The notes below the pieces were generated by a model. The model was given only the letters and a program-made list of their open reading frames with translations. It had not been told where the DNA came from and searched no databases. A program made the translations under genes and the position numbers. DNA of 63,885 nucleotides, counting the filler, from Schmidtea nova (taxonomy: Eukaryota): NCBI GenBank assembly GCA_044892505.1. It is 4 parts of 2 records of this genome, joined end to end, with 100 filler letters (N's around TTAATTAATTAA, not from the genome) between each part and the next. Parts side by side here need not be neighbours in the genome. Positions count along the whole stretch, not along the records: positions 29,798 to 59,552 come from CM097882.1; 3 more parts are not named here. One strand, written 5' to 3'. This document shows, piece by piece, positions 9,401 to 63,862 of this stretch (position 1 is its first letter; every line of letters starts with the position of its first letter).

Positions 9401-9818
9401 GATGGAGGGGTTGAACAATAACCTTTACCTCTCAATCTACTTATTTGGGAATATTTTGTAAGTTTAAAGCTTATTTCTTTAATTTTATTTATTGACCAAT
9501 AGCTGCCATTTTCACAGACTTTAGTCATTTTTTCACTTAATAGAGCAATACCTTCATCTAAAAAGGTATCACTCGTTGGCTTTGCGGAATTTGATATTAT
9601 AAATGATTGAAATTGCTTATTCTTTTCAAATTCTACATCAATGCAAAATTTTACTTTGACATATCCCATTTTGGAAATAACTGAATTAAATTTATTTAAT
9701 AAAAGCGAAGGAATAATTAATTTATTTAAATTTAAAGAATCCACATCCATTTTAACAATGGCATGCGATTTTTTCAAATTATATTTAACCAAAGGTTCAA
9801 CAGAACCGCCATATTGGA
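6401..9818 (-). pseudogene. polB: Protein-primed family-B DNA polymerase (Maverick/Polinton/adintovirus type), split by one frameshift
   Basis: Exo I YADFE, EndoVII-like CYLC..DHDHYTGKYLGAACAKCN, Exo II IFHNLRGYD, Exo III YLKLDV, Pol A YIDINNLYG, Pol B KLLNNSLYGK, Pol C GDTDS, LRPKCY. ORFs 7627-9792 and 6401-7525 join by a 1-nt frameshift at ~7630; the frame is open into the gap at 9819. Confidence 0.92.
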
Positions 9819-38900: not shown

Positions 38901-41900
38901 TCGGGCCTCTCTATTGTAATTCGTATGGTTGGTGTTGTTTGCTTATCTATTGCCTGGGGTTTTTTGTTTTCTGTTCCCTGTGTCTCTGTTCTTCCACATT
39001 TTCCGACGATGTAATCTCCTTTGTGTGACTGTTGTACTGTCATGGTTACTTTAGGTGTTTGGTAGTTTGCGCATGCGATTGTGTTGTGTGATCTTGGATA
39101 CTTTTGTTTTCTAACGGTGCATATTCTGTACCAGGTGTCTAGATCTAAGTCATCGATCTCTATGATCTCTTGCTCGTATTCTGAGATTCTGCAATCCATC
39201 GGACTATTTTGTTCCGTGATTTTGTCCTTTTTTGACCAACATACTCGTTCGATTCCTTTTGCGTTTTTTATTTGTATTATTGCCCTTTCTTCACATGTCA
39301 TTCCTTGACTTGGGTTAATTAACGTTAAAAGCACTGTTAATAATAGTAATTCTGGTCTGAAGAATGGTTTTATGGTTGATTTATAACCTGTTCTTTGGGT
39401 GTCATTTTTATCTTCTTGGTCGTTTTTTCTTTGTTCTGCCTCTTCATTTCTTGGTCTTTCGTCTTCATTCTTCTTTTCTTCCTTGTCTCGTTTCTTGTCT
39501 TCTCCTTCATTGTCTTTTTTATCGGGTGGTTCGTGATCGTTCGAATTTTCTGAGTTGTTATCGTCGTCACTGTCTGCATTGTCATCTCCCCCTGGCCCGT
39601 CGAAAATGTCGTCCTCGACATTGATTTCTTCTATCAATTTTGCATATGCTAATGTCGTTAGATTACTTGCCTCAAATTCTTGTGTTTCTACATGCTCCGG
39701 TATGACTTTGTTGGTGGATTTGTATTCCGAGATTTCCTTTTTGGCCTTGATCCAGTTGTTGATGTACGTCTTCATCAATTCTTTCCATTTTCCTGTGTAT
39801 TTTTCTTCTTTCGGGTTGTTGGTGATTCTCAGATCTTTTCTTTCCATAAATATCATCAATATCTCTGGCCATTTATACGTTATTAAGGCACTTCTTATGC
39901 ACCAGTTTTGGTTATGTTCTGTGAACTCATTAATCCTGAATGCTGGTTCGTTGGTATTCGGATTTATCCACGTAAGTATTGCTTCTGTTAGTTCAACATT
40001 ATGCATCATTGTTAGTACACTGGGTTTCTTGACCGTATCAGTTAGGTAATCTATTTCTTCCTGATTTGAGATTGTTTTAATGAAATTGACCATTTCCCAA
40101 TTATGTGTTAATAATGCTACATCCAAAATTGAATTATCTTTATCTGTCTTTCCTGTAAGTCCTGCACCTGCTTTGTATAGTTCTTCTAACACCTTTGTTT
40201 TCGTTTTGGCCCTTGCTGCAAATACCATGAGTGTATCTCCTTTCTCGTCTATCATATTCATGTTGCTTCCGCAATTTAGCATTACTCTTGCAATTTCTAT
40301 TACCTTCCTATCTTTACCGGTTCGTAAAGCTCTATGTATTGGCATTATTCCGTCCTTTGGTAGTAGGAATGCTACTGGCATCTCCTTTTTTATAGTCGTT
40401 ATATCGTTACCATTGTATGTTCCCTTTGCGTATGCGTGTACTTTTTCAACTAATGCACCAAGTATTTCTAGTGCATGTTTACAATTTTCGAATTCCGGCA
40501 ACAATTCTTTTGCTTTTTCTTGTATCGCATCTAGTCTAGCTTGGTATGGTGCTTCTGCTTTGAAGAGTGGTGTGAGTTTCTTGTTACTTTCTCTTTCTTT
40601 TTTCTCCAAAACCTGTTTACATTTCTCGGGGTGGTTTAAGATTTTTACTAATTCATCATACTCACTTACTATCGTCTGGTATTTCTCGTTAAAATTGTTT
40701 ATGTCTTTGTATGTTATTAGTTTATCAAGTGGTTTCGCACACCATTTCCCAATCTTGTTGAATAAGGCCTCCTTCTCTTTATCGAATTTGTGTTCTTCTT
40801 CATTCTTTGTGATGTTTATGTTTCCTCTGTCTAATAAGGCTAGTAATGTCTTTTGATCGCAAGTAAATTTCAAAAGGTATCTTAACAGCGCGTTTTGTCC
40901 TTCGCTGTACACTTCATTTATGTCTAAGACCCATGCATCATCTTCTGGTCGTTTCCATTTGATTAACTTACGGATCGTATTACATTTACCAATTTTTATT
41001 GCCTCTTTGATAATATCTCCTTTTATTAATTCGTCTATTTCCCACGTGGAGTTAGCTATTATGTATTTCAGCATTGGTTGGTGAGAACTCCATATTACGT
41101 GATTCAGCACTGTTTTGTCTTCTCTATCCCGTTCTGTCCAACTGAAATGAGCTTTTATCAACAAATCTACCATTTCTTTATCTGCTTGATGGATTGCTGC
41201 TGTCATTAATGGGGTTTCCTGTTCCCGATTCCCAACGTCCAAATGTTGGTTTGTTTCTTTGGCGATTTTTAAGAATTCCTTTGCTCTTTCTATGTTTCCA
41301 CACCTTATCGCCTGGTGTAAAGCTGGTTGTCCTTCTACATCTTTCAATAAGAGTATCTCAGGGATTCTCTCCAATAACTCAGAGATAATTGGTTTGGTTG
41401 GTAATCCTTGTGCGTAACCGCTAATTATATATCTAATGTCCCTTGATATGCCTGCTTCGTCTCTAACATGCCATCTTCCCATTATCTCTCTCGCCTTCAA
41501 TATGATTTCTTTATTTCTGATTTCCTTTTGCCTTATTTTCGCTTTGTCGTCTTCGCTTGTGTTTGCTCTGAGCATATTTATCCTGGCTGTTTGTGATCTG
41601 GTTATTATTCGATTTTCTGGTGTTGTAGTTATCGTTTTAGGCACTTTCTTACATCTGCAGGTGTTTACATATATGGGTCGTACTAACGGTCGATTTATTA
41701 GCTTAACTGTGACATTATTGTCTTTTTTGTATATAATCTCATAAGGTCCTCGTCCAGGTCTTTGAAGTTTCTTAACAGTTCCTGGTATTATTTGGGGAGT
41801 TTCTATTATCACCCAATCTCCGGGTTTTAGATCGTTTGCCTTAACATTTTTCTTCTGGTCGTGCAAGTCCTTATAACTTTCTTGATAAAATTTAATGTTG

Positions 41901-44900
41901 AGTTCTGCCGTCTTCCATATTTCCTGCATTCTTTCTTTGAATTTGGTTACGTAGTCGTCGTCTTCCATATATTGCGATAATGGTGGTTGATACTCCAAAT
42001 CTATGGGCATGTTGCATTCTCTTCCATACATAAGTTGAAACGGGCTTAGTTTTGTTGCGGCGTGTATCGACATTCGGTATGCCATTAAACATAATTTTAT
42101 GTACTCGTCCCAGTCAGTTTGGTGTCTGCCGACGTAATTTGATAACATTCTAATCAGTGTACCATTGAATCGTTCTGTTTGTCCATTCGTTTGCGGGTGG
42201 TACGGTGAAGTTCTCAATTTTGCTATTCTAAAATAGTTTGTCACCTCGTTCAATAACTCACTCATAAAGTTAGTTCCTTGGTCTGTGAGTATTTGTTTTG
42301 GAGTTCCGTATCTGCAACATATTTCTTCCACCAAAAGTTTTGCTACGGTTTTTGCTTTTTGGTCTTGCATGGCAAATGCTTCCGGGAATTTCGTCAGATA
42401 ATCCATTATCACCAATATATAGATATTTCCGTTAAGACTTTCTGGTAATGGTCCTATTACGTCCATTGCTATAGTTGTCATTGGCTCTGCTGGTATTGGC
42501 ATTGGTTGTAGCGGGTTTTTCCATTTCTTCCCACTATCCTTTCTGGTTGCGCAAGTTAGACAATTTTTAATCCATTCTTTAATATCTTCTTCCATTGTTC
42601 GCCAATAATATTTTTGTCTCATCCGATTAAATGTCTTTTTCTCGGACATATGACCTCCTAATTTCCGATCGTGGTATTGGATCATTATCTCTTTCCTTCT
42701 GTTTTCCGGTAAACACATCAATCTCTTTTCACCGTCTTGTATTAACAACCATCCTTTATTTATTATATATCGATGTTGATATTTTCCTATATGTTCCTTT
42801 AATTCCTTATTATCCTTGAATATATCCATATTTCGAGATGTTAGGAACTCTATGATCTGTCCCAATTCTTTGTCTTCCTGTTGATCTTTCTTTAACTCAC
42901 TAAAATCTAAATCTTCCGCTATTAACACACAAATTCGTTGTACATCCGGATCGGTTAATTCCGGGAATGTCAGTCTTGACATACAGTCTGCATTCGCATT
43001 TGCTCGTCCTGATTTAAATTTTATGTCTGGTGAGTACTCCTGTAACTGCATTGCCCATCGCATTAATCTACTGGATGTTTCCTTGTGCTGTCCTAACCAT
43101 ACAAGCGGTTGGTGATCTGTTATTATGCAGATGATGTGTCCCCATAATAAATATTTAAAGTGTTTAATTGCTAGTATAATTGCTAACGCTTCTCGCTCGG
43201 TTACTGAGTAATTTTTCTCATGCTTTTTGAATGTTCGGCTATAATATCCGATTACCCGTTCTTTTCCTTCGTCGTCGTATTGTCCTAATACTGCTCCTGC
43301 TGCATATCCGCTTGCATCTGTTGCAAGTAGGAATGGCTTCTTAAAGTCTGGGTGTACCAATATGGGTGCGGTTATCAGTTTATCTCTCAACGTTTCAAAG
43401 GATGTTTGTTGTTCATCTCCCCATATGAATGATACATCTTTCTTGACTAGTTCCTGTATAGGTTTTGCTATTCCGGCGTAATCTTTTATAAACTTTCTAT
43501 AGTATCCACATAGTCCGAGAAATTCTTGTATCTGGGTTATTGTTTTGGGTACTGGACATTCTTTTACCTTGTCGATATTTCTGGGATCCGGTTCTTTTCC
43601 CTTTGCTGACACTATATGTCCCAGAAATGTAACCTTTTCTTTTGCCCAATCACATTTGGATGGCTTGAGTTTTAACTTCCATTGTCTAAGTCTAACGAAT
43701 ACGTCTCGAATATCCTGTAGGTGTTGTTCGAATGTACTAGAGTAGATTAATAAATCGTCGATGTAGACCATGCACTGCTTTATTCCATGGGTGACGAAAT
43801 TCATGCATCTCTGAAATGATGCTGGTGCGTTCGTTAGTCCAAATGGCATCTTTCGAAATTGATATAGGTCTCTACCGATGGTAAAGGCAGTTTTCTCTTT
43901 ATCTTCTTCCTTCATTTTTATTTGCCAGTATCCGCTTTTCAGATCTAGTGATGTAAAATATGCTGCTCCCTGTAATGTTAATAGCATTTCGTTGATGTCC
44001 GGTAATGGGTAAGTGTCTCGTTTTGTTACCGTATTCAATCTTCGATAGTCGATGCAGAATCTCTGTGTTCCATCTTTCTTCTTTACCATTACCACTGGAA
44101 ATTGCCAGGGTGAACAACTCGGTTCGATCACTTCTGCATCCAACATTTTCTTCACTTCTGCTTCCGCTACTGCTTTCTGTGCTTCTGCTAGTTTGTACGG
44201 CCTTAATGCAATTGGTGTTTCGTCTGTTAATGGTATCGTATGTAACGTGACATCACATGTTCCTAGATCTAAATCGGATGCTGCAAATATATCCTTATAC
44301 TCCATCAGCAGTTTTTCTAACTGCTGCTTTTGGTCCTTATTTAATAATTCACTATCAATATTCCAGGTTGGTTTTTTATCTTTCTCTGCCCCTTCTATTG
44401 GTATTTCGATATCCATCATTGGGGTTAATTTTCCTAGTCTTTCGTTTTCGTAGATTATTTTATCCTCCTCGTCGAAATTTACTACGTTTATTGGGATTTC
44501 TCCATTATCGTTTATGTTGACTAATCCTCTTGCCATTGGCAACGCTTTTCTTTTCTCGAATCTTTTACTTGGTTCAAAAATCATATCCCCTTGGATTGTC
44601 GGATCTATTTTTACGTAACATATTTTTTCCTTTCTTGCCGGTATTATCATTTGCTTTGAACTCGTTACCTTGGCTTCTATTGCGCATATTTGTCCGGTGC
44701 GATCTTTTAATCTCATTGTTCCGAGGTCGATTACAATCTCTTTAAATAACGCTGGCATCAAATCTGTTCCGATAATGCAAGGTACGCTTAACGCTGGTAT
44801 GACTGCTACGTACGTATCGATTTCTGTGTTTAAGTGGCGTATTTTTACCCACCATCTTCCTGCTACTTCTACAATTTCTTAGCTACATGCAATTACATGG

Positions 44901-45154
44901 ACGTTTGTTCTTTCTATTTCCCGTCTTTGCTCTTGTGGTATCCATTTGATGTCGATGGCGGAAATGTTTGCTCCAGTGTCGATCATTGCTTCGATTTCCC
45001 TTCCGTTAATCTCTATTGTTGTGGTTAACACTGGACCTGTGTTTGATGACATTACGGCGATCGTATGTGCGTCTCCTTGTGGATCTACACTTCTACATCT
45101 TCTCATTTTATAATCTTCTGGTATCATGGGGTATACATTTGTCATTGGCATCAT
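35924..45154 (-). CDS. pol: Pol polyprotein PR-RT-RNaseH-IN extended by 2x ankyrin modules and 2x signal/FN3-like/TM modules; two in-frame stops (44879-81, 36800-02)
   Basis: IDTGA..CIIGTDL protease; RFCIDYRRLN, FRKMPFGLTNAPASFQ, YIDDLL RT; TDASG, EREALAI, TDHQPL, NANADCMSR RNase H; H..GGH..CLTC, AMDVIGP, TDQGTNF, YHPQTNGQTERFN, GPYEI integrase. ORFs 44879-45154, 36800-44761 and 35924-36799 share one frame. Confidence 0.95.
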
Positions 45155-48100
45155 CTACATCGTGGTCGTTCTTCCTCCTTGTAGTGGTTCTTGATACATT
45201 GTTGGTGGAGGTGCGTAACATTTCCACGCGTCGGCTGGATTCTTTTCGATGTATTGTGGTGCTTGGTTCTTATACACTTGTCCTCCCTTATAGTCGTCAT
45301 CGTCATCATCGTCGTCACTCGAATCATTTTGGGTTTTATATCCTTTCATCCTTTCCCATAAACCTTTTCTTTCTCTCTTGAGCTGTTGTCTTGCTTGTTC
45401 GTCATTCATTATCTTTTTAAATTTTCGTCCTACTTCTTCATCTGTTCCCTTCATTTTTGCGAGTATCTTCAACAATCTCTTTATTCGATGTATGTCCTTT
45501 GAGTGTCCGTGCAACACCATCGTTTTCGCAAGGAATGGTAAAAACCCTACTACCATTTTCCAATTCACTTTCTTTTCTCTCTTGTAGATATCGAAACACG
45601 CTAATATTTGCGTTATTATCACTCTGACGATTTGTATTATTAATATAACCCCCAGTATTCCCGCCATCATTTGTCCGAATATCAGGAATCTTCCCCACAT
45701 TGCTTTCATCATATTTTCTGTGGCTTTCTTGAAATGTGTTGGTGACAACAACAGTTCATAATTCGGTCCTTCTCGATAATTCGTTCCTCCCGTTATCGTT
45801 ACGATATTTGACAGTAATGCTTCTCTTCTCGCCGGGAATAATATATTCTGCCTTGCTGCTTCTAAATCCTTTGGACTATATATTCCGTTGTTTGAGACAT
45901 CTACGTCGCTGAATTGCCTATCTTTTGACAACTGCATTAGCTTGAATTCTCTTGGTGCTATCACTTCGGCTCTTCCTGGGAACATAACCCATTTACCATC
46001 TCGTTTCTGATAAAGCGGTCCGTACGCATTACTACAGTTGAATGGATTTGGTTCAAAGCCTGGTGGATTGATGATTCTCGTCACCAGTTGAACGTATCGT
46101 ACTTTTCCTTTGTAATCGATTTCTAACTCATTTGTACAGGTTCCAGGTTTCAACTGTGTTGTTGCTGCTAGCGACGCGTGTGTCTTTTCACAAATGTATA
46201 CATACATTGCTTCTCCAACCACTCTTCCGAAATGTCCTTCTCTCAGTGGTAATAATGGCATCGCGCTATCTGGATTCGTAATCGCTACGGCCAACTTTGT
46301 CTTTAATATTTCTCGATTCAGTATACAATCATTGTTTATCAGATCGTAGTACACTTTTTGTAATGAGGCTTGTCCTCTATGGAATAAGAAATCCATTTTA
46401 TTATTCACATACAAGTGTAGTTTGATATCCATTGTGTCAATTTTGGGTTTCGCATTCGGCACTTCTTGTTTTGACACATATATTCCTGGATAATTCGTTT
46501 CGTATACCGTTGTACTACACTTAAGGGTTGCTTTACCTTTTATGAATCTCATTCCCACATCCTGATTTGTGGTTATCAACACTGATGGTGTGGCTCTCAT
46601 CTCTATCCGTTTTTCTCTATGATCTGGTTTCAATTGTCTTTTATTCTCTAAAGCTTCCTTGAGATGCTTTGCTCTAGCTTTGTCGTCATCGTCTTCTTCC
46701 TGGAACGTTTTTCCTTGGATTTCGTCGAACTTTGCTCCTTGCAGCAGTTGTAATTGACATTCGTTCACCTTTGGTTTGTACACTAATGTTGACATTCCCG
46801 TTTGACACATGCTCCTGTCGATTTTACACATGGATAACGTTTTCATTTCTCCCGTTGTGGGTTCGAAGAATGCTTCGTAGCTTTTCAGTTCGACTATATA
46901 CGTATCCATCACCACTAAATTGGTTGCGAGTGCTCCGAATATCGGGTAGGTTTCTCCTTGACAATATACTTCTCCTCCCGTAATCCGTCCTGCTACATAG
47001 TATGTCTGTTGCAGCATCATTCCTGGCTTTCCTTTTATCTTGATTTTATCTCTTGTTGTTACTTCTCCATGTTTAAACAATGCTTCACAGTCTTCTCCTT
47101 GTAATATGATTGGTTCTCTTTCCGTTCCTGGCATGACAATTGCTGAATAATGTCCTCTCCCACAGTAGAATGCGAATCTCGTCTTCTGCACCTTACATTC
47201 ATTCACCATTGTCTTTATGAGTTCTGCTTCTTGATACACGTGGTACCATTGTTCCTTTTTAATCTCCTTTAACTCTACTGGAGTTGCATCTTTGCATTGC
47301 TCCGTACCTCTCAATGAATACTTTTCACCTAATGCCATCCGATCGCAATCAAATACTTCGAATGCTGTTGCGCCATCGGTACTAATCATCCATATCAACA
47401 TCATCATTATGATAGAACTCAGATTCATTGATGACTTGGCGTTTCCTGTTCCTGTTTGTTCTTTTTCTAGTTCTCCCAATATTTTTTCGAATTTCTTTTT
47501 CATATTCTTGGCTTGCGTTTTCTTCTGGTTAGTTTTTATAAATGTTTCCAATCCTCCTTTGTTAATGACGTAGGGTTCTATTTCTCTAGCTATAATCTTT
47601 GCGGTATTTTTTATATGTCTCTCTAATGCAGTGGGTTTTGGTCGGCCTCTACTCAGTGTCAACAGATTGTAGATAGTGTATGCAATGGCTATTACGTATT
47701 TGTTATCTGTTTCCGCTCCTTCTGTCAATTTCTTTATTAACGTAGTGGTTCCTTGCCAGTCTAAATGATTTGACTTCGTCTTTTCTTTTATGAATTCCGG
47801 TAAGATGGGTGCGATTGCGCTGTGTAGTGACTTCGCCTTTTCGCTTATTTCAGTTATACGCCAGTATATTCTTAATTCCGGATCAATTGTTGCTAATATT
47901 TCCATTATTGTTTTCGATATCCATTCCTCCCCTTGACATTTTGGTGTTGTCTCTTTTTCTTTTGTCTCCGCGATTTTATTTAATTTCCTTAGACACAATT
48001 CCCATTGATCTTGTCTCTTTTCATCCTTATTTCTGATGACTACATTCGCTGGATCTGTCTTGGGTCTACCTCGAGGTCGTCTATCCATTCCTGTACCTGT

Positions 48101-48505
48101 TTCCACAAACCTTGTTGCCTGTCCGGTTTCTTCCGTGACATCTCTGGGTTCGTTAGCTCTTTCTTCTAACCATCTTTCCATTTCCTGGGTTAATTGTACA
48201 TTTTCGACATTCGCTCCTCTTGGTTCGTCTTCCGTCAAATCGTTTACCTCTTCTATTATTATCTCTTCTTCGACTTCTGTTTCTCCGGTGTTGGTTACTT
48301 GTACTGTCGTAGGTAATTCTTGTATTCTCTTGAAAATGTTGTCGTCTTTTTCCTTTGTTAATTCGGTTAGCTCTTCTATCATGTCGTCGCTGTCTGTTAA
48401 TATTTCGTCCACGTCGTATGGTTGTGGTGGAGTCCTTTCTCTATTCCCTCTGGGTGTTGTCTCCGATCGTCTTGAACTTGTCCCTGGTATCAGTACTGAT
48501 TTCAT
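45155..48505 (-). CDS. env: Bcl-2-like domain + chuvirus-like (class III) envelope glycoprotein
   Basis: After an internal signal-like stretch (MNLSSIIMMMLIWMISTDGATA): FEVFDC..SL...C, ECKVQKTRFAFYCG, YVNNKMDFL, DCILNREIL, VGEAMYVYIC, CTNELEI, GIYSPKDL..ILFP and a C-terminal TM. This matches the Cys/motif pattern I recall for Chuviridae glycoproteins. N-terminal EIEPYVINKGGLETF resembles Bcl-xL BH2. Confidence 0.85.
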   Translation of the reverse strand: MKSVLIPGTSSRRSETTPRGNRERTPPQPYDVDEILTDSDDMIEELTELTKEKDDNIFKRIQELPTTVQVTNTGETEVEEEIIIEEVNDLTEDEPRGANVENVQLTQEMERWLEERANEPRDVTEETGQATRFVETGTGMDRRPRGRPKTDPANVVIRNKDEKRQDQWELCLRKLNKIAETKEKETTPKCQGEEWISKTIMEILATIDPELRIYWRITEISEKAKSLHSAIAPILPEFIKEKTKSNHLDWQGTTTLIKKLTEGAETDNKYVIAIAYTIYNLLTLSRGRPKPTALERHIKNTAKIIAREIEPYVINKGGLETFIKTNQKKTQAKNMKKKFEKILGELEKEQTGTGNAKSSMNLSSIIMMMLIWMISTDGATAFEVFDCDRMALGEKYSLRGTEQCKDATPVELKEIKKEQWYHVYQEAELIKTMVNECKVQKTRFAFYCGRGHYSAIVMPGTEREPIILQGEDCEALFKHGEVTTRDKIKIKGKPGMMLQQTYYVAGRITGGEVYCQGETYPIFGALATNLVVMDTYIVELKSYEAFFEPTTGEMKTLSMCKIDRSMCQTGMSTLVYKPKVNECQLQLLQGAKFDEIQGKTFQEEDDDDKARAKHLKEALENKRQLKPDHREKRIEMRATPSVLITTNQDVGMRFIKGKATLKCSTTVYETNYPGIYVSKQEVPNAKPKIDTMDIKLHLYVNNKMDFLFHRGQASLQKVYYDLINNDCILNREILKTKLAVAITNPDSAMPLLPLREGHFGRVVGEAMYVYICEKTHASLAATTQLKPGTCTNELEIDYKGKVRYVQLVTRIINPPGFEPNPFNCSNAYGPLYQKRDGKWVMFPGRAEVIAPREFKLMQLSKDRQFSDVDVSNNGIYSPKDLEAARQNILFPARREALLSNIVTITGGTNYREGPNYELLLSPTHFKKATENMMKAMWGRFLIFGQMMAGILGVILIIQIVRVIITQILACFDIYKREKKVNWKMVVGFLPFLAKTMVLHGHSKDIHRIKRLLKILAKMKGTDEEVGRKFKKIMNDEQARQQLKRERKGLWERMKGYKTQNDSSDDDDDDDDYKGGQVYKNQAPQYIEKNPADAWKCYAPPPTMYQEPLQGGRTTTM

Positions 48506-48536
48506 CGAGCTCGGCGTACTTATACTTCCGTGTGGT

Positions 48537-51500
48537 TTATGGTTTACGTTTCAATGGTTGACCCGCTATTGCTTCCATTGTCAAGGTATTCATGAGATCT
48601 AGTTGTGCTGGCGTTATTCCAATTTCCAAACTGTTATCTAATGATCGTCCTTGGTGTTGTAAATGGAATGGTGGTTCGTATCTCAATTTCTTTTTAATAT
48701 CTCGGATTTTTTCTGCTATTCCTACCCAAAATTCTTCCTTATCCTTGTTTGGATATATTATTCTTAAATGTACTTTTTGTGGAATTTCCTGCGAGAATTC
48801 TTGATTTCTCCATTTCCTAATTACGTGGTCTAGTTGTTCCGGACACCACTCGTTAACTCTTTTATATTCTGCGATTGCTTTTGCCACTTTACGCAAGCAT
48901 GTTATATCTTCTCCATTAACCACGAAAAAATCTGCGAGACCTTTTATTACTTTTCTCTTACCGTGCGCATTAGTTTTTAATATTTCGACAAATTCTTCCG
49001 TTTTTTGCTTTTCCTTTTCTAACCATATAGCCGCTGTTTCTGGTCCATCTAGGTCTATTGGCGTAGCTTTCCTTGTTACCATGCAAACCCTTCCCATTTC
49101 TGGTTCGCAGTCATCTTCCATTCCTTTTTCATATTCTTCTTCATATTCACCTTCTTTTGGTTCCCAACATTTTCCTTGCTCGTTCCATTGTTTTTCTACG
49201 GGTGTTCGTATTCGTCTGTTGAGATTGAGTTCTTCCAATACATTTTCCCACTCCGGCCAAATCCGCCAATTTCGATAGATGTCTACTATTTGTTGTAATT
49301 TGCGCACAACTTCTTTTTGTCGTTCCCGTTCTTTTTTCTCATCTTTAACAGTTTCCCTTGGTGTATCGTCCATTCTGATCACGTGGATTGTTTGGTAATT
49401 ATCCCATATGCCAATCTTATATAGTCGTCTCTCATCGTGATCCCACAATATATGTTCGTTATATTTCATGATTATATCGTCTTCCCATTCGTCTTCTAGT
49501 TCTCTTTGCACCAGTGTCTCGTTTATGACCTTTACTAATTCTCTTATGGTGCAATCTGCTACCACTTCAATTTCTTTGGTATCCTCATTAGGTAACTCTA
49601 TTGAAATTTTTAGATCCGCTATTTTCCCTTGTCTGAACATTGTTTTTCCCATTTTTGCGATTAATTTGTCGTGTGAGATCTGTGACCATCTCGTGTGACT
49701 TGTGTCACGTATGCACTCGATGCATCGTTTCAGCTTCTCGTATTCGCTTCTCATTAACTCTTTTCTATGTTTTTTGACTTGTGGTATGATTTGTTCTATC
49801 AGGGAATTTAGATTTTTTCGTAAGATTCGTCCTTTCTCGTATTCTAACCGTGGTTTTATTCTCCTTTCAAAGCACGTGTTTGCTTCATTTGCAACTTCTT
49901 GTAGGTTCTCTTCTTCCTTTTCATCGCATATTGATAACAGGGTTACTTCTCCTGGCCATATACCTGTTTCTACTAAGTGCGTTCTTTTCTTTACGAGTCT
50001 ATTCTGCGAATAGATGAATTTGTTTTTATATGAGCTCCCTAGCCTGTCCTCTACCCATCTGTAGATATCGTCTGTAAATGGAGTTTTGATCCAGATTCTT
50101 GGTGTAGATGTATTTATCATTATTGAGATGGTGTAATTGAGGAGTGGTTCCTCTATTAATTTCCCTACGTATCGATTTAACATATCTACTTCTCGGTCTT
50201 GTAACCATTCTTTGTAGTTCATTTGCAATAATGCTTTCATGAATTTCCTATATTGTTTCTTGTCCATGAATTCTTCGTTATATATTACTTCTAGCGAATT
50301 ATCTAGTAATTTCTGGATTTCATCTACTTTTATCTGAGTAGGTTCTGAGGTCTTTATTACTTTTATCTCTTTGTTTTCGTCTTCGGGTTCGTTTAATATG
50401 TCTCCTGCTAGGCTACTGATATCACTATCTTCTTCCTCATCGGAAAACTCTCTGGTGGTATTTCTTAACATATTAATGTGTGCTATTTGGTTCGTTTCCC
50501 CCTGTATATTCTCCGTTGGTTCTGGTTCGTTTTTGTCAATCTCTGGTGTTGGTTCACTCTTGTCCTCTATTACTTCGACTTTTCTCATTTTCTTCTCCAA
50601 CTGGTCTATCTCTTTCAGACGTCTTCTTATCATTTTTCCTTTAAATATTCGACTGATTCGGGTTTCGTGACGTATTCGTGCTGGAGTTTTCTCTGGTTCT
50701 ATTTCTTTGATAATCATCACGTTTCTTTTTGTTTCTACTACTCCCATGTTTTCCCATATATCCGTTAACTTCAACTTTACTTCTGGCGCACCTTCTATTT
50801 GTAAGAACGCTTCTCTGGGAAGTTTCGTTACTCCTGGAACCATCTGGTTTACTTTATTGAACAGTATTTCCACCTCTTCTTTTACGTTATATTGGAATCG
50901 GAACATATGGTTGTTGGGCATGATTACCATCATTCCTTTTTTCCAAATTTTCCTCCTCTCTTCCTGGTTTATCTCAGTTTCTACTTCCTTTTCTATTTCT
51001 TTTTCTGCTTCCTTATCGTCTTGTATTACTCCTTTTCGACTTCCATTGTCGGTTGGATTCGAATTTATTTCTAATGTGGTTTCTTTCTCTGTTTGCTTTG
51101 TTGCTCTCATCATGTTAATTCTTAGAGGTTGTCGCTCTCTTTCTTGCTGTTTTTGTTCATCTTCTCTTTGTATTCTTGCCCATTCCTGAGCGTGTCGTGC
51201 TTGACTTTCTCGATTCAACCGTTCGTTTTCACTTTCTATCTTTCTCATCATGCTAATTTGTTGTTGATTGGTTTGCGGATTTCCTCTCGTCGTGTTGTTT
51301 ATAAGTTCCGTCAACCTTTGGACTTCTTGCATCAAATGTATTTCTTTGGTGGTGGTTTTGTTCTGACTATTGTTATTATTGACTTGTTGGTTTCCATAAT
51401 CTTGTCGGTTTACGGTATTTGTTTGATTTCCGTAATTTTGTCGGTTTCCGTTGCTCTGCCAATTTCCTCGCTGGTTACTTTTTTGTCCGCAATTTCTTGA

Positions 51501-52910
51501 ATAGTGACCAGGTCGTCCGCAGTTAAAACAGGTTATCGTAGAACATCTACTCTCCGAGTGTCCTTTAACTCCACATTTTCCGCAATTCAAATTTTGATAA
51601 CATTCCTGCTGCCAATGTCCCAACTTTTCACATGTTTTACATTGTTTTGTTTGTCCTTGAGGGTTGTAATTGTTTTGGTTTCCAAAGTTCTGCACTTTAT
51701 TTCCTTCATTCCTTCTTTGAGGGGGTGGTCGGTTTAATTGTTGCGAATTTGGAATGTGATTGTTGAGATTTACTTCTGGTTCAGTTTGTTCTGTGTCCAT
51801 GGCTAAATAAATTCTGCCCTCACTTCCTATCATATGCAATTCGAATCTGTTAGGTGTTTCTAACGCTTGATCTATGGTTTTGCATCCTTGGCATCCAACT
51901 TGCGCTCTTATGTCAGGTCTTCTTAATCCTCCTATGAAGATGGCTGCCATTAGTTCCTCGTTTATTGGACTCCCATCCTTAAATACCGATTTTGCTAATT
52001 TTTTCAGTTCGCTCGCGTATACCGCGTTAGACTCATTCATCTTTTGTTTTCTCATCGAAAATTCTATGAATGCTTCGCTTAGCTCTTTATTTATTCCAAA
52101 TGTTTGTTGGAAAAAGTCCTTTATCGCTGGCCAGTTTGCAGGTGGATTGGTACCATTTTTCGCTTCCAAATATAGGTCCAATGCACTATCTTTCAAATAT
52201 AGCTGAATTCTGCTTACCGTTGTTTCGGCTTTCCATTTGCATACTTCCACGAATATGCCAAATTCCTTTAAAAAGGTTTCTAATTTACTTGCATCTCCGT
52301 TAAACGGTTCTCCTGAAAATTTATCCTTTATTTCTTCTCTTGGTTCACCCATTTCAATTCCGCTGTCTTGAGTTGTTTTACTTTCGTTTCCTCTTGTTTC
52401 TAGTTCGTTGTTATGTTCGTCTTCTGTTTCACTCGAGCTTGAATCGCTTTCTGTTTCTCTTACTACTTCGTTATCCGATATTATATTTTCGTTATCACTC
52501 TCGTTGGTTTCTACTTCTGGTTCTACCTCGTTTTCTACTTCTTCGATATTATCGTTGTTAGTTTCGCCGATTTCTCCTTCTTGTTCTATCTCGTGTTCTA
52601 TTTCTTCGATATTATCGTTGTTAGTTTCGTCGATTTCTATTTCACTTGTTTGGTTCTCCTTGGGTTCCGCTTGGTTTTCCTTATTACTTGAGCTGTTGCT
52701 TACTACCGACAATTTATCGTTTTCGATAATCGCTTTATCTCTTATTATCTTCCTTGCTTTACTCCCTTGTAGATTTTTGTTGTTATCTTTGCCGGCTTTC
52801 TTCTTTTTTGTTGGGTTTGTTGTAGTACTAGTTTTGTCTTTTTTGTTAATATCGCTGCCGACTTTCTTTTCTGTTGGCTTTATTACGACACTCTTTACTC
52901 CTGTTCTCAA
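48537..52910 (-). CDS. gag: Gag (capsid-like, three CCHC knuckles) with a ~900-aa C-terminal extension including two ubiquitin-like domains
   Basis: FNGDASKLETFLKEF..RKQKMNESNAVYASELKKL..FIGGLRRPDIR capsid pattern; CKTCEKLGHWQQEC, CGKCGVKGHSESRC, CFNCGRPGHYSRNC. The ORF start is a TTG; the first ATG is near 52352. Confidence 0.92.
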   Translation of the reverse strand: MRTGVKSVVIKPTEKKVGSDINKKDKTSTTTNPTKKKKAGKDNNKNLQGSKARKIIRDKAIIENDKLSVVSNSSSNKENQAEPKENQTSEIEIDETNNDNIEEIEHEIEQEGEIGETNNDNIEEVENEVEPEVETNESDNENIISDNEVVRETESDSSSSETEDEHNNELETRGNESKTTQDSGIEMGEPREEIKDKFSGEPFNGDASKLETFLKEFGIFVEVCKWKAETTVSRIQLYLKDSALDLYLEAKNGTNPPANWPAIKDFFQQTFGINKELSEAFIEFSMRKQKMNESNAVYASELKKLAKSVFKDGSPINEELMAAIFIGGLRRPDIRAQVGCQGCKTIDQALETPNRFELHMIGSEGRIYLAMDTEQTEPEVNLNNHIPNSQQLNRPPPQRRNEGNKVQNFGNQNNYNPQGQTKQCKTCEKLGHWQQECYQNLNCGKCGVKGHSESRCSTITCFNCGRPGHYSRNCGQKSNQRGNWQSNGNRQNYGNQTNTVNRQDYGNQQVNNNNSQNKTTTKEIHLMQEVQRLTELINNTTRGNPQTNQQQISMMRKIESENERLNRESQARHAQEWARIQREDEQKQQERERQPLRINMMRATKQTEKETTLEINSNPTDNGSRKGVIQDDKEAEKEIEKEVETEINQEERRKIWKKGMMVIMPNNHMFRFQYNVKEEVEILFNKVNQMVPGVTKLPREAFLQIEGAPEVKLKLTDIWENMGVVETKRNVMIIKEIEPEKTPARIRHETRISRIFKGKMIRRRLKEIDQLEKKMRKVEVIEDKSEPTPEIDKNEPEPTENIQGETNQIAHINMLRNTTREFSDEEEDSDISSLAGDILNEPEDENKEIKVIKTSEPTQIKVDEIQKLLDNSLEVIYNEEFMDKKQYRKFMKALLQMNYKEWLQDREVDMLNRYVGKLIEEPLLNYTISIMINTSTPRIWIKTPFTDDIYRWVEDRLGSSYKNKFIYSQNRLVKKRTHLVETGIWPGEVTLLSICDEKEEENLQEVANEANTCFERRIKPRLEYEKGRILRKNLNSLIEQIIPQVKKHRKELMRSEYEKLKRCIECIRDTSHTRWSQISHDKLIAKMGKTMFRQGKIADLKISIELPNEDTKEIEVVADCTIRELVKVINETLVQRELEDEWEDDIIMKYNEHILWDHDERRLYKIGIWDNYQTIHVIRMDDTPRETVKDEKKERERQKEVVRKLQQIVDIYRNWRIWPEWENVLEELNLNRRIRTPVEKQWNEQGKCWEPKEGEYEEEYEKGMEDDCEPEMGRVCMVTRKATPIDLDGPETAAIWLEKEKQKTEEFVEILKTNAHGKRKVIKGLADFFVVNGEDITCLRKVAKAIAEYKRVNEWCPEQLDHVIRKWRNQEFSQEIPQKVHLRIIYPNKDKEEFWVGIAEKIRDIKKKLRYEPPFHLQHQGRSLDNSLEIGITPAQLDLMNTLTMEAIAGQPLKRKP

Positions 52911-53520
52911 CGGGATTACTTTTGTATACTCAATTTTCCTGTCTTATCTCTTATCGTTTTCTGATTCTTCTTGTTTGATTGATTGATTTGATTGATTTGT
53001 ATATCTAAAATACAAAGGTCCTCAACGATACATTATTGTTGTCGTCGCGCTTTTATTCCATTTCTTTCGGGATTACTTATTACTGGGTTTTCATTATTTC
53101 CCCATTCCCAGATTCCCCTTTATTTTTAGTCTATTTAATTTATCTATAGACTGGTCACAATTATCTATTTATGTCGTAATAATTATCTATACTTTTATAA
53201 ATCAATTACTTTTCCCACAGTTTCCCAATTTATTGGTCGCTCGAGCGCTCTAATTCCTTGAGTCTTTCTGACTCGTTTATCATTATTTATCATCTCTATT
53301 CATTATTCCCTGCTAGCAATCGTTTTACTCATTCTGCCGGTTGCTCCGGTCAGCCCAAATTTTTTCTATTCTCCTTGCATGCTTTACTTAAGGTTGCATA
53401 ATCAGCTTTACTCGCATTTCTTAACTACTAGTGCGCACTATTCTAAATCTCGTCGACGATTACACTATGGGTCTATATTCCCTCTGTTACTAATTACCCG
53501 GATATCTCTATAATTCTCTA

Positions 53521-53776
53521 TGGCTCTTTTGGCCTCAATTTTAATATCTCACATGGCTCTATTGGCCTTAATTTAATATCTCAACTGGCTCTACTGGCCT
53601 CAATTTAATCTCTCATATGGCTCTATTGGCCTCAATTTAATCTCTCACATGGCTCTATTGGCCTTAATTTAATATCTCAATTGGCTCTATTGGCCTCAAT
53701 TTAATATCTCGATTGGCTCTATTGGCCTCAATTTAATATCTCAATTGGCTCTACTGGCCTCAATTTAATATCTCAA
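53521..53776. repeat. 32-bp tandem array (8 copies) in the element leader
   Basis: TGGCTCTA(T/C)TGGCCTCAATTTAATATCTCA.. units start at 53521, 53554, 53586, 53618, 53650, 53682, 53714 and 53746. Confidence 0.95.
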
Positions 53777-53816
53777 TAATGCCTAGCTAGGTCATTCAAT
53801 ATGGCTCATTGGCCAC

Positions 53817-53955
53817 AACCCTTTGTTTCAAGGGACAACCGCTAATAACCCTTTGTTTCAAGGGACAACTCTAATAACCCTTTGTTTCAAGGGACAACTC
53901 TCATAACCCTTTGTTTCAAGGGACAACTCTCATAACCCTTTGTTTCAAGGGACAA
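53817..53955. repeat. 29-bp tandem array (5 copies) with an internal hairpin
   Basis: AACCCTTTGTTTCAAGGGACAA at 53817, 53847, 53876, 53905 and 53934. Confidence 0.95.
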
Positions 53956-54427
53956 ACCTCGTATAACTTTACTTAACCGGTTAATCACAATTCCTAACTT
54001 CGCTAGCGACTTAAATTTCTCAGCTGAGTTATAACTACTTCTATGCGAGCTGATTATGCACCTTTTTATACCGTCATTCATTTTCTATTTTATCGTAACT
54101 ATTTTCTGATCAGTCTGCTTCAATATTTTATTAATTTTTCTATGCGCGCCTTACTCCATCAAGAGTTCCCTATCTCTCTCCCCAACCAAAATATACAAAA
54201 AGATCGCGTTGGTCTATTAATGCGGGATGTGGTGATCAGTCACATCACAAAAACTTTCCAACATTTGCGATGGGCCCCTTTCTATATGCTCTGAATGGGT
54301 TGATCAATCGGTGCCTCCCAGAGGATTCTTACCGGACTACTTTGTAGTAGCTCAAAAATTATTTAAATACAATGATTGTTCCCATGATTCACCATTCGAC
54401 ATTTTACTAATCAACTCTAAACATTTA

Positions 54428-54931
54428 TTACAAATAAACTATAATTTTTTCATTCACAGTAAAGTTGCACATCGGACACCGGTCACACTTGCTGGCACAG
54501 ATCTTACAAAAACGGAAATGTCCGCAAGGTAAAAACATAATTTGTATCTCGTTGTTTTCACATATATAGCACTGTCGGTATTTTTTCGCTGCTTCTACTC
54601 CTTGTATTCTCCATCGATTGTATGTTGGGGTTAATTGTTGTTCTATTTGTCTGCATCTAATGTTTAGTTCCGCAGTCTCTAGTCGTGCTCTGTACCATTT
54701 GTAGCGGGTTTTTATGTCGATTTTACTTGTTCCTTCTGTTATCTTTATTAATTCATCAGTTTCCTCGGTCTGTGTTGTGGGTTCTTGAAATTCAATTTCT
54801 CTAAATCGGTTTATTTTCTTGCCAATTGTTGCTAATGTTTCGCTTTCTGTGTTGAGAAATTCTTCGATTTCTTTCAGTTTTTCCTCCATTTGCTGAATAA
54901 ATAATCGTTTTAACTTTGTTGTTTTTATCAT
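54428..54931 (-). CDS. Coiled coil + C-terminal IAP-type RING finger protein (167 aa)
   Basis: CYICENNEIQIMFLPCGHFRFCKICASKCDRCPMCNFTVNEKIIVYL at the extreme C-terminus, the IAP/XIAP-type RING pattern; no BIR domain. Confidence 0.88.
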   Translation of the reverse strand: MIKTTKLKRLFIQQMEEKLKEIEEFLNTESETLATIGKKINRFREIEFQEPTTQTEETDELIKITEGTSKIDIKTRYKWYRARLETAELNIRCRQIEQQLTPTYNRWRIQGVEAAKKYRQCYICENNEIQIMFLPCGHFRFCKICASKCDRCPMCNFTVNEKIIVYL

Positions 54932-55261: not shown

Positions 55262-58200
55262 TGCTGGGTTCATGGACGGTGTAGTAAACATTCAAATGAT
55301 TGCCAGGGATCTCCCATCCATGATCATGCATAAATAGTCGTAAGCTACACTCGAGCGCCCTTGATTATTTCCCTTGATAACCAAGTTGGTGTTGCGCAGG
55401 GTGGTTAAACAATGAGGGGCAGGTGAGCACTATTGCTAGGACTACTCCCCCTTTATGTTTACGGGTTCACGCGGCCGTAGAAGGACTTACGCAATTATTG
55501 TTCTATTGTGTGTGTGTGATGTTATGTATTTATCATAACAAAAAAAAAACAAGCAAGCAAAACGAAACTACGAATTTGATAATATTTAAATTCTTTATCG
55601 CTACTCCTTTCGTTGTGTGACGGGTAATTTAATTATATGAATTAGGTAATCGAAGGAAATACTTAGGAAATAACAACAACAACAAAAACGAACAAAGATT
55701 TAATTAACTCCAAAATCTGACATCATATTCTATCTGCTACAGAAATTCTTTGAAAATTCCTTCAGGAGGGAATATCTCTGATAACCACTCGGCTTCCGAC
55801 ATTTCTGCCATAGTGGTTACTTGTGCTTGCAGCTGCTGAGAGAACAGCTTTCTTTGGCGACGGCGCTTGGAACCGATTCGCTTTCGCTTGTTCGTTTTCC
55901 CGACGGGGTTTGGCGTAATGGCGGCTTTCACCCGGCTCTGCACTGTGGTTGCTTCGAGCCCATCGGTATCCGTACTGACCGAGCAGGCCACTTTCTGTTC
56001 TCCTACCCATTTCTGGTAGGTGATGGGTCGGATTTGTGCTTTCAATTCGGACTCGATAAATGAAGTCGTCACCGAATGGAGACATCGGCGCAACTCAATT
56101 TTTGTTGCTTCCCATTCGGTGCGATAATCGTCAGCTGTCTTTTGAGCCCTTTCCGTCCGACTCATCTGCTCCTTCATACGGGCTGGGGCGAACCAGCTGG
56201 TCCGTAAATACTGAATCTGAGCTTCTGCCTTGGCTCGTAATGCTTTTTCCTGATTTAGCTCTTTTTCTAAGGCTCGGCGGATCCTCCACGCCTTGTCCAA
56301 TTCTCGCTGTTGGCTAGTTTCCGTCATACTAAATAACAAACCCATTTTATGATGCAGCAATTATGTTACCAACGATTAATATTATCCGTCGAGTGTAAAA
56401 ATTATAGGATTAAATAAATAGAAATACATTTAACTAAGAACAAGCAAAACACAGATCAACACCATTTAATTTATAGAAACATTTAGTTCATAGTAATGTG
56501 AATAGAACTTTTAGTGGCAAACGCTTCGCTTGAGGCCGTGAACCGGGGTAATATGCAACCCGTGATTGACTGGATCTCGTCGGATGTGAGCCATCGAACA
56601 GTTTAGTTTGGGGCGTCCATGGTCCGCTTTCGGCAAGTGGTTCAGAATCAAACCGAATTGAAGCAGCATGTGGGGCGAGACGTATCCCCAGTGGATTACG
56701 GTCGTTGGGTTGCCTGCGATGTCCGTCAACACTATGATGAATCGAGCTGTCGTTTCGGGGTCTCTTTCGTCTGAATTTTTCCATCCGGGGCCTCCTCGAT
56801 ATATGATGGTATCTAATCCACCGGTTCAAATCGAAAATGGACATTTTTTCCCAGTTCCCGTCTCCACTTGTACATCAACGCATTTAGCGTTCTTAGAAGT
56901 TCCTGTGGAAGCGACTTCAATTTCTTCTGTTGCGTCCGGATTAGAGGATTTTCGTCCCGTGCCACACGACGTTGGGTTGTTAGAAATTCATCCAGTATCG
57001 TTGATTTCATCTGAGAAAATAATAATGCTAATAAAATTTACTGTGACGAATCCGCAAATTTTGGTGAGACCTGATGAAATGTGCTCCTCTCGTTGATCAA
57101 CAAAACAAAAAAAATATGAAAAGGAGGAATAAAAAAAATTTTCTAAGCTATTCAATTAACACCGTCGCTATATACAGCGATCGGGATACGTTTATTAAAA
57201 ATTTACATATTATCACCTGCGCTATTTACAGCGATCAGGTTACGGTTTTACTTATTCAATCAGTAGTGTCAATCTGATTATGTTGTTATTTATATCTTAA
57301 TTAAAACTATCGTTGAAATGTCGAAATCGTCTCGGTGTGTCCGGACATTATTTCGATCAGCTATGTGGATTCGAAAAATCGTGTGCATATGCTAAATCGA
57401 TTTAGTTGACATGATAATTGATACTGTAGTTTATTCTCCCCTGTCTGATCGAACGTTAATTAACTAATGTTAAACACTGTCTACTAATTTTACCCGTGTC
57501 CTTGTCCCTGTACAACTTTACCGTAAAGTTAAACCTCTGATAAAAATTAAATTAAATAAAAAATACCAATAGAAACTCTGCTCACCATCTTGTGGAACGG
57601 TGAAATCCCACATTTACGGCTTACTCCCTCGCAGCGTGAGCTACTGAGGAAGTATATTTATCATATCATAAACTAATAGCATAAGAAAATAGAGCAATTA
57701 ATAGTAATAAATTATATTAAATGAAATGAATGGGAATCATGTAAAACATATCATAAAATTAGTTCAAATACAATACAACAAAATTTACTATTTAAATCCA
57801 AGATGCAGCGTTTCCAAAATTTTACACAATATTTGTCGTATCAAAGTTGATGTAACTGACTGTTATAGATCAGTTCGGTAGCTAAGTTTTTAGGTGGTGT
57901 CTTTATGATTTTTGGATCGGTATTTATACTGATCCAGTTGGTCAGATTGACCAATCAGGATCAGGCCGTCCATCAAAGTAATTTTGTTATTTTATTTTAA
58001 TATAAACCATTTTAAATTTCCGGTTCAGATTTCTCGCTGGGTGGTCCCGATTTTTTCAAGTAATTAACCAATTAATTGTACTTTTATTTGATTTTATTTG
58101 TAATTTTCTTATTTCAGACCCCCATACTGCTCGTTCCCGTGTCAATTTGATTTTCTTCCTTTGCTGGAAATTTAGTAATTATTATTTATTATTTTATTTT

Positions 58201-58306
58201 GATTTTTAATTTAGGTTTTTTGAATGTTTTTGTGGTTATTATTTGTATTTATTGTTTAAATTAGTACAATATTTTTGTCTTTTTAGACCAATTGGTGGGC
58301 CCAACA
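55262..58306 (-). repeat. 5' LTR, 3,045 bp
   Basis: Starts TGTTGGG and ends CCCAGCA (6/7 terminal inverted repeat), followed directly by the PBS; repeated at 29798-31951. Confidence 0.92.
55737..56345 (-). CDS. LTR-encoded ORF-B (~202 aa): coiled coil, Arg-rich motif, acidic/aromatic C-terminus
   Basis: ATG at 56345 (MGLLFS..); KRKRIGSKRRRQRK; EMSEAEWLSEIFPPEGIFKEFL. The visible part of the 3' LTR copy (29798-29989) is identical. Confidence 0.7.
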   Translation of the reverse strand: MGLLFSMTETSQQRELDKAWRIRRALEKELNQEKALRAKAEAQIQYLRTSWFAPARMKEQMSRTERAQKTADDYRTEWEATKIELRRCLHSVTTSFIESELKAQIRPITYQKWVGEQKVACSVSTDTDGLEATTVQSRVKAAITPNPVGKTNKRKRIGSKRRRQRKLFSQQLQAQVTTMAEMSEAEWLSEIFPPEGIFKEFL

Positions 58307-59550
58307 GGAGAAATGAAACTTGCCAAAGAAATAAGATTTAAAAATAAAATAAATAATATAAACAGCACCCTAAACTGGATAAATGGTGACGAAAAAGGTG
58401 ATTCTAGTGGCCCTAAATGCATATTCAGTAAAACCCGAACATCAATAAAGAGACTAAGAGAAAAATTTGACATAATAATTAAAATTATCTATAGAGACAA
58501 TAATTACATGCTAGAATTAAAAAAAATGAACTTATATATTATATAAACTACCTTAATATTGACTCTACCTCTGAAATCTTACACAACCTTACAAGTGCCA
58601 TATATGCTTCAAACTGGTATAACATGACTTGTCAAGGACACATAGCCCATACAATTGGAGAAAATAAACACTCTGCTCATCTAATAAAACATACAGACCT
58701 GTCTGATCACCAATACTTCTTCCTAATCAAAGCCAGAAACAATAGCTTAAATTTAAAATACACACAACACAGAATCACAGAAAAACTTGATATTAACTGT
58801 AGACACTGTCACACACACTTTGAAACACAAATTCACATTTTTAATCACTGCCCACATACACAAAATGCTCGTAGGAACAAACACAACAACGTACTACTTG
58901 CAACTAAAGACTATCTAATATCTATCAATTATGAGGTAGACATAGAAACAGCACCACCAGGAGTAACCACCACACTAAAGCCTGACCTAATAATAAAATC
59001 TCCAAAAAATAAACTTATTCACATTGTTGACATCAAAGTACCCTATGATAACAAACATTTTTTTATAGAAACCAGACAACAAAACTTTGAGAAATACAGA
59101 AACTTAGCAAAAGAAACAGACACAATAAACAAATGTAAAACAACACTATCTGCTCTTGTTATAGGAACCCTTGGCTCATGGGATGATGACAACGATATCT
59201 ACCTTAGGAAAATAGGACTAAATGAAAATGAAATCAAAGCACTTGCCAAAATAACAATGAAAGTAGCAGTAACATCGAGCCATAGTATATATATGGACCA
59301 CATACTAAATAAACCTAATTAATAATAATTTTCTATAATCTACCCCCAAATCATAAATCAAAACTAATTAAAATAACTTATTAGGATGTATAATTATTCA
59401 ACACTATATTGCGAGATACCTACCAATACTTAAAATATACCTCTATCGGCATTATGGACACTGTTTACAATTATATTTTTTGCGATTACCTATATTACTA
59501 TTATTAGTACTATTATTGTTGTTATTATTAGTATTATTACTGTTATTGTT
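58307..59550 (+). mobile_element. 3' part of an RLE-type (R2/R4/NeSL-like) non-LTR retrotransposon
   Basis: CRHCHTHFETQIHIFNHC zinc knuckle, then KPDLII..IVDIKVPYD..NFEKY PD-(D/E)xK endonuclease; 3' UTR ends in TATTA-type repeats. Confidence 0.88.
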
Positions 59551-62789: not shown

Positions 62790-63175
62790 CTAATAGAAAA
62801 ATGAATATTAAAACAAATCAAACGCATCATTCAATTGTGTGCAAATTATCATTGCTAAATCTCATCAGGGAAGGAGGACAAAAATAACAATGAAATATTG
62901 AAAGAAATGGGTGATATTTACAGCTAGCATTTGTCCCATATTGATATCACTAGACACCAATTCATCATTGACGGCCATTAGTGCCAATCATGCTGTCTAA
63001 TATTGTCCTAATATCACGTACAGAAACATATCGCTATATTTCTAATGGAAAAGTAAAGAAATTCATTCAAGCGTGAAACTACAAAAATCCATAGTTACCC
63101 ACATTAAATTATCCAATCAAAACCAAGAAATATAATCCAATCAAAACCAAAAATATTATCCAATCAAAAGCTTAC

Positions 63176-63862
63176 TAGCAATAGCAAATGAAATTGTTCT
63201 ATTCAGCATTTTCTTGGTATTCACCAGAATGCTTTTCATTGTGCATTTGAATGTCCATTTTGAACCGGCCGGGCTGTTGCTATGGATATGGATTTGGTGA
63301 CCTTCCCTGGTGATATTGTAGAACCGTTCCGCATTCGGGGGGCCTTCAATCAGTTGCCAATTTATTTCTGGATCTGGATATCCATCACTGGTGTAGCACT
63401 TTATGGTAGAGTTTGATGGGAATCTCTTGATGATGATTGGATGGATATATAATGCGGTCGGGTGATCTGGAATGGGGGAATGGATCAAATCCAATGAAAT
63501 TGGGATATTTATCAATGAATATGAAGGAAGTTTCATATAAAAAGATAATAAATAATATAAATAATATTTACTTGCAATTCTGAATGAGATCGTCTTATTC
63601 AGGATTTCACAAACATTTTCTATGCAACTTTGAATGACGCATTTGATCTTCCATTCAGATTTGGTCGGGCAATTTCCGTTCAGGTGAATTTGCGTTCCGT
63701 TGCGCACGATATTATAATATGTTGATGCGCTTTCTGGCCCCTCAACTATTTCCCATCGGGCTGCCGCAACCGGATATCCGTCAGAGGGGGCACAATCAAT
63801 TGTGGAATTCGGTTCCATTATCCCGTCTGGCATTGGCATGATACGGATTGATGTCGGGTGGC
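63176..63862 (-). CDS. Two tandem 291-nt phase-1 exons each encoding an Ig-like domain
   Basis: Exons 63862-63572 and 63466-63176 with AG/GT boundaries; repeats HPT..I.P....NSTI.C..SDGYP....W..VEGP......KW..KC (Ig C..W..C pattern). Confidence 0.82.

Follow-up and report, generated by a model that had tools for sequence, protein, structure and literature searches.

We find that a giant LTR retroelement in the 63,885-nucleotide stretch of Schmidtea nova DNA analyzed here (the window) encodes, ahead of its envelope (Env) signal sequence, a domain that, by sequence comparison through four relatives, is a divergent homologue of the Bcl-2 family. Large DNA viruses characteristically encode Bcl-2 mimics, and the preliminary description of this DNA knew of no confident example from LTR elements. 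That supposition does not hold. A pre-env Bcl-2-like domain in a Burro-type element is already in print: the pertinent section of the account by Arkhipova and Yushenova (2019; PMC6431247) places a BCL2-like motif directly before env in the planarian Burro elements, credits it to Grohme et al. (2018), and leaves its role in apoptosis to experiment. The literature searched, some of it available in part, held no structural or functional test of that motif. What we add is modest, namely profile and fold support for the domain, evidence of selection, a topology in which the signal peptide could act as an anchor, and a further Burro-type member with a different cargo layout.

The domain lies in a minus-strand open reading frame (ORF) of 1131 codons at 45155-48550, whose product from the first ATG (48505) is termed P0001. 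Both peptides that first drew attention to the region, one BH2-like and the other BH1/alpha5-like, are present in this ORF as claimed. The BH2-like peptide occupies P0001 residues 304-324 (47534-47596), a placement with which the profile alignment to Bcl-xL agrees, and the BH1/alpha5-like peptide occupies residues 267-281 (47663-47707), where profile and structure comparisons likewise put it. The domain had also been described as preceding the Env signal sequence, and this is the arrangement found, with a hydrophobic stretch at residues 360-381 followed by the fusion ectodomain; the stretch (47363-47428) falls just beyond the range of 47530-47960 originally given for the feature. Two AT-hook-like RGRPK motifs (48063-48074 and 47640-47651, minus strand) flank the domain or lie inside it. 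The features of the element are collected in Table 1.

Table 1. Features of the retroelement and of its Bcl-2-like domain, in positions of the window.
Feature	Position	Strand	Remarks
5' LTR	56154-58306	-	At least this length; TG start at 58306
Accessory ORF with C-terminal C3HC4 RING	54428-54931	-	zf-C3HC4_3, E 3.7e-11; upstream of gag
Gag ORF	48537-52943	-	Zinc knuckle, long linker; ends at a frame change relative to the Bcl-2/env ORF
Bcl-2-like domain	47513-47935	-	P0001 residues ~191-331; seven predicted helices
BH1-equivalent, start of helix 5	47699-47710	-	TDNK versus NWGR of Bcl-xL
BH2-equivalent	47540-47575	-	GG pair invariant in 5/5 rows
Predicted internal Env signal peptide (candidate tail anchor)	47363-47428	-	Residues 360-381; before Pfam PF24664
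Class III (gB/chuvirus-type) fusion glycoprotein ectodomain and transmembrane helix	45614-47362	-	Monjiviricetes_fusion, Pfam E 2.1e-69
Aspartyl protease, N-terminal part	44879-45154	-	In frame with env and pol; stop codon on each side
Pol	36800-44878	-	RT, RNase H, integrase, ankyrin repeats, then repeated hydrophobic/Cys-containing modules
Accessory TRAF-like gene, full-length	33973-35349	-	RING, zf-TRAF, MATH; MATH_2 E 5.8e-22
3' LTR	29798-31951	-	Cut by gap; 99.6% identity to 5' LTR

Taken as a single sequence, the window's domain matches nothing in Pfam, the PDB or a word-indexed protein database. The ESM Atlas returned nothing for it or for the relative P0018, and none of 221 pattern matches for the domain in metagenome contigs was confirmed. 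A HMMER search with P0001 yielded 826 proteins at E ≤0.001, and 4 of 150 among the matches listed carry the domain. Three of these carriers (P0004, P0007 and P0018) were found by phmmer with E-values of 2e-5 to 7e-5 in a small set, and the fourth, P0013, was recognized by the position of the domain and a BH2-like motif. The window's domain and these four relatives, which are 15-23% identical to it, make up an alignment termed A1. Each of the four relatives in A1 matches the Pfam Bcl-2 family (PF00452; best E 2.3e-5), and the window's row is unmatched. The bit scores available for the relatives are below the curated cut-off (20.1 bits for P0007 versus 31.4).

A profile built from the four relatives without the window's row, albeit from rows previously aligned together with it, assigns the window's domain 40.0 bits (E 1.7e-10), compared with at most 12.6 bits for shuffled sequences and 6.3 bits for the reversed sequence (1000 shuffles were made, and 984 rows were scored, the real and reversed rows included). 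Among 578 six-frame segments of the window, the domain is the sole match to this profile at E <0.05, the next segment having an E-value of 0.09. Furthermore, when the A1 profile is compared with PDB sequences, Bcl-xL occupies the top 54 of the best 60 rows (best E 4.5e-4), in an alignment that spans BH1 to BH2.

The two motifs are preserved to different degrees. The BH2 pattern (aromatic-x4-GGW) is complete in all four relatives, and the window's copy has Leu319 in place of the Trp after the GG pair; at the Leu319 codon, family contigs have one of their nine non-synonymous differences from the window. Neither the Trp nor the Gly of BH1 is present in any of the five rows of A1, and each row keeps the basic residue (Lys or Arg). 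The domain has no canonical BH1 (NWGR), and this degeneracy lowers its standing as a canonical member and leaves the Bcl-2 fold standing.

A single-sequence model of the window's domain (pLDDT 51), whose structural matches are generic helical proteins and none of them Bcl-2, was set aside because its quality was too poor. The model based on A1 has seven helices and is itself of low confidence (pLDDT 58.6). In a Foldseek search of the PDB with this model, the Bcl-2 family accounts for 44 of 44 among the matches listed, with probabilities of 0.89-1.00, TM scores of 0.41-0.59 and E-values of 0.05-0.18. A VIA structural search of 48,161 chains places Bcl-2 folds in its first 24 rows, in keeping with the fold proposed in the preliminary description. 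The best row (rmsd 3.7, 136/145 residues aligned) has a Z of 9.2, below the Z of ~13 that VIA asks of helical bundles, and the first unrelated row has a Z of 5.9. Among BFVD models, F1L, E1B-19K, BALF1 and other viral Bcl-2s appear among unrelated rows, none at E <0.1. No single score is decisive; because the sequence profile and the two structure searches converge on one family, we predict a helical bundle around a central hydrophobic helix, that is, a Bcl-2 fold.

With the cellular and viral Bcl-2 proteins (Bcl-xL, Mcl-1, Bak, the nematode and schistosome BCL-2 proteins, canarypox CNP058 and KsBcl-2), the domain would share this bundle around hydrophobic helix 5, the BH2 motif and a hydrophobic segment C-terminal to the domain. 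It differs from them in its low identity (6-14% in the top 24 structural alignments), its degenerate BH1, its location within a retroelement polyprotein, and the predicted nature of its C-terminal segment, which is an Env signal peptide ~40 residues past BH2.

The host of the domain is a recently inserted giant Gypsy LTR retroelement of the Burro type. Its two LTR copies (56154-58306 and 29798-31951) share 99.6% identity across 2154 bases, with seven mismatches and one gap, and the 3' LTR is cut by a gap in the sequence, and thus the insertion is recent and the element is at least 28.5 kb in size; 24.2 kb separates the matched LTR parts. The element has a G+C content of 37%, compared with 29% and 32% in its flanks. 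A pattern scan for a primer-binding site, which would mark the inner end of the LTR, gave six weak candidates, none convincing. A zf-RVT fragment (58624-59322) adjoins the 5' LTR, and the leader before gag contains two tandem arrays (53508-53986) with units of 32 and 29 nt. As judged from a Pfam scan that took in 23 ORFs of the window, the order on the minus strand is gag, env, protease and pol, accompanied by TRAF, RING and ankyrin cargo.

The TRAF-like gene is intronless, lies downstream of pol, and encodes a coiled coil in addition to its RING, zinc fingers and MATH domain. The RING ORF, which we take to be IAP-like, has no BIR domain by Pfam, and BIR, ubiquitin-like and dUTPase-like motifs gave no Pfam match in the element's whole ORFs or in 13 sub-regions. 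Two segments of the Gag linker (49314-49643 and 50364-50846, minus strand) look ubiquitin-like by eye, as in Burro, without Pfam support. Repeated modules make up the end of Pol and the in-frame ORF after it (35924-39400, minus strand); they combine a hydrophobic segment, Cys-containing repeats and transmembrane helices, and match one another with E-values down to 8e-19. The Cys-containing repeats (~90-100 residues) are FN3-like by eye and have no Pfam match, and scans of the 13 sub-regions left the FN3-like parts unconfirmed by Pfam; this array is possibly a surface array of decoy receptors. Additional accessory ORFs on the minus strand (32155-33856, 35442-35798 and 55737-56360) comprise one for a 186-aa protein with a signal and a transmembrane segment, two with coiled coils, and one of 207 aa whose start is within the matched LTR part.

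Burro/GYPSM1 elements, described by Jurka (2007) and Grohme et al. (2018) according to the portion of PMC6431247 that treats them, exceed 30 kb (or have an internal region of up to 25 kb and a total of ~30 kb with LTRs), carry MATH/TRAF, BIR and ankyrin domains, and have env between BCL2 and protease. They have in common with the present element the giant size, env between gag and protease, the BCL2-like motif before env, ankyrin repeats, MATH/TRAF cargo and a mononegavirus-like fusion glycoprotein, all but the last of which are the features by which we assign the element to the Burro type. In contrast, the present element has a full-length TRAF gene of its own downstream of pol, whereas TRAF lies inside ORF1 in Burro1 and in an upstream ORF in a Dugesia tigrina element; BIR, which Burro has, finds no Pfam match here; and the membrane-protein modules at the end of Pol go unmentioned in the pertinent section of the Burro account (PMC6431247). 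According to the same section, the Ubl and dUTPase motifs of Burro rest on HHpred. BURRO1 transcripts rise upon PIWI knock-down (PMC8532177, as excerpted), and Burro is mentioned once in the available part of PMC11410931.

The gene order and Env type are also those of the flatworm GAG-ENV-POL errantiviruses with an HSV/gB-type Env, Smed_errantivirus_1-6 (Chary and Hayashi, 2026; PMC13524379, in the parts consulted). By eye, and as far as those parts extend, the present Env resembles these proteins, number 5 the most, and is identical to none of the six. The string 'Bcl' has no occurrence in the main text and seven supplements of PMC13524379.

In the window, stop codons separate Env, protease, Pol and the ORF after it, all of which are in one frame, and Gag is in another frame. 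From gag to integrase, this copy is broken at three places, by one frame change and two stops, whereas the excerpted account of Burro1 gives a single 4,873-aa ORF for the same part. To compare other copies, we used family contigs from four runs of one study, with 41-44% of the sampled words. Thousands of contigs align to the stretch, as expected of a multi-copy family. At each of the two in-frame stop codons, family contigs have a sequence other than the window's in all four runs, and at the gag/env junction 30-47% of the depth has a length difference from the window in three of the four. Among the related proteins, a single chain joins the Gag knuckle, Bcl-2-like domain and Env in P0018; the Gag knuckle, Env and protease in P0005 and P0019; and Env, protease and Pol in P0006, P0008, P0014 and P0019. 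Because the family contigs differ at these breaks and the relatives have single chains, the breaks look like damage to the window's copy, which may itself be non-functional. The domain is probably the middle of a Gag-Bcl-2-Env-Pol polyprotein, broken here, rather than the start of a separate env gene; the single frame across the gag/env junction may apply to only part of the family depth, in three of the four runs.

The amino-acid sequence of the domain is conserved among family copies and is under purifying selection. There are 54 variable sites in 47500-47960, and of the best-supported 40 of these, 28 are at third codon positions; 31 are synonymous, 9 are non-synonymous and none creates a stop codon. 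The resulting pN/pS for the domain region, from these 40 of 54 sites in one study, is ~0.08-0.12.

Across the relatives, the domain is dispensable, since 10 of the 14 examined with at least 140 residues before Env are without it (in four of these 10, the stretch before Env is just 141-230 residues long). In a tree of Env from 19 of 152 proteins, five carriers and five non-carriers fall into one supported 10-row clade (96/95). The carrier label requires four changes on this tree, and 159 of 500 shuffles are as low, so that carriers are no more clustered than by chance; the tree allows one gain and several losses of the domain, with clustering no better than that of the shuffles. A GRP[KR] motif before Env occurs in P0018 and in P0003, P0005 and P0006, which have no Bcl-2-like domain, a shared sequence feature hinting that the latter three lost the domain by deletion. 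Related polyproteins (P0003-P0006 and P0153, of 4844 aa) have tandem aspartyl-protease domains between Env and RT, with up to six such stretches in P0153. The retroelement Env-Pol polyprotein P0008 is annotated at NCBI as hypothetical and assigned to a metagenome bin of Flavobacteriaceae, and is probably a binning contaminant.

The hydrophobic segment that follows the domain could serve Env, the Bcl-2-like domain or both. Its hydropathy (2.52 for the best 11 residues and 1.47 for the best 19) indicates a short core for an anchor, and Ala residues are at positions -3 and -1. A similar short core with small -3/-1 residues is found in all seven relatives scored that lack the Bcl-2-like domain. 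By these sequence features the segment resembles signal peptides of the ordinary, cleavable kind. It may or may not persist as an anchor; the predicted topology is compatible with one. In all five carriers, BH2 is 46-76 residues from the ectodomain.

The likeliest role of the domain, and one that we judge somewhat better than an even bet, is that of a pro-survival sink or decoy for BH3 helices that would keep the host cell alive while the element replicates. We rank this role first on the strength of the closest structural matches and of the accompanying TRAF and RING genes. An intact family member would make one Gag-Bcl-2-Env-protease-Pol chain, in which residues 360-381 would thread Env into the ER and the Env transmembrane helix (45614-45670; residues 946-964) would bring the chain back to the cytosol, where protease and Pol would follow. 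Cleavage by signal peptidase might then take place after residue 381, and the element's own protease might release the Bcl-2-like domain from Gag. The domain would remain on the cytosolic face of the ER, held transiently or permanently by the signal peptide, where it could bind the BH3 helices of host Bak/Bax or of BH3-only proteins. A C-terminally anchored position on the cytosolic face is the topology of tail-anchored Bcl-2 proteins.

Poxvirus A46 and A52 have the Bcl-2 fold, gave up BH3 binding, and block signaling by binding adaptors. A comparable function for this domain, acting on innate-immune or NF-kB signaling through TRAF or TIR adaptors, is less likely. In its favor, the BH1 Trp and Gly are gone in every row of A1, the structural search includes A46 (Z 6.4) and A52 (Z 5.5) among its rows, and the same element carries a TRAF gene and ankyrin repeats. 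However, cellular and viral proteins that bind BH3 head the structural rows (Z 8.1-9.2), BH2 and the basic residue of BH1 are kept, and a canonical BH1 is dispensable in several viral Bcl-2s, which bind BH3 without it and whose complexes are among the VIA rows.

Somewhat less probable still is a role in the particle, wherein the domain would form the cytosolic portion of a leader peptide of Env, there to connect Env with Gag or to sense the membrane during budding, its apoptotic ancestry being incidental. The Env leader peptide of foamy viruses, which functions in particle assembly, is the model for such a role, and both the fixed position just before the Env signal in all five carriers and the protein-level conservation of the domain would fit it; yet five of the ten rows of the same Env clade are without the domain, such that assembly there needs none. 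Finally, coincidence, meaning a linker that happens to have amphipathic helices and a GG motif, is very improbable: the window's sequence alone and its single-sequence model are unmatched and pLDDT is low, but each of the four relatives matches Pfam Bcl-2, a single family emerges from the sequence profile and from both structure searches, synonymous changes are in excess, and the same annotation is in print (PMC6431247, in the section cited above).

If the pro-survival reading is extended to the whole group, Burro-type elements might be infectious retroviruses equipped with a kit for suppressing death and immunity, including a working viral Bcl-2 that is anchored by the Env signal peptide and that was captured once and lost repeatedly. 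We consider this larger picture possible and are inclined to doubt it. If true, each Env molecule threaded into the ER would leave one anti-apoptotic protein on the membrane. That a retroelement conserves a Bcl-2 domain beside TRAF, RING and ankyrin cargo suggests a limit, set by cell death, on the spread of retroelements in these animals.

Elsewhere in the window, Pfam recognizes a fragment of DNA polymerase B and an ORF resembling endonuclease VII at 6401-9792 (minus strand), which together are probably a Polinton-like remnant. A 1-kb duplicate with a fragment of a non-LTR-type RT is present at 125-1157 and 28657-29697, the two copies being 96% identical. An ORF at 63156-63839 (minus strand) matches the C2-set immunoglobulin domain and is perhaps a host exon.
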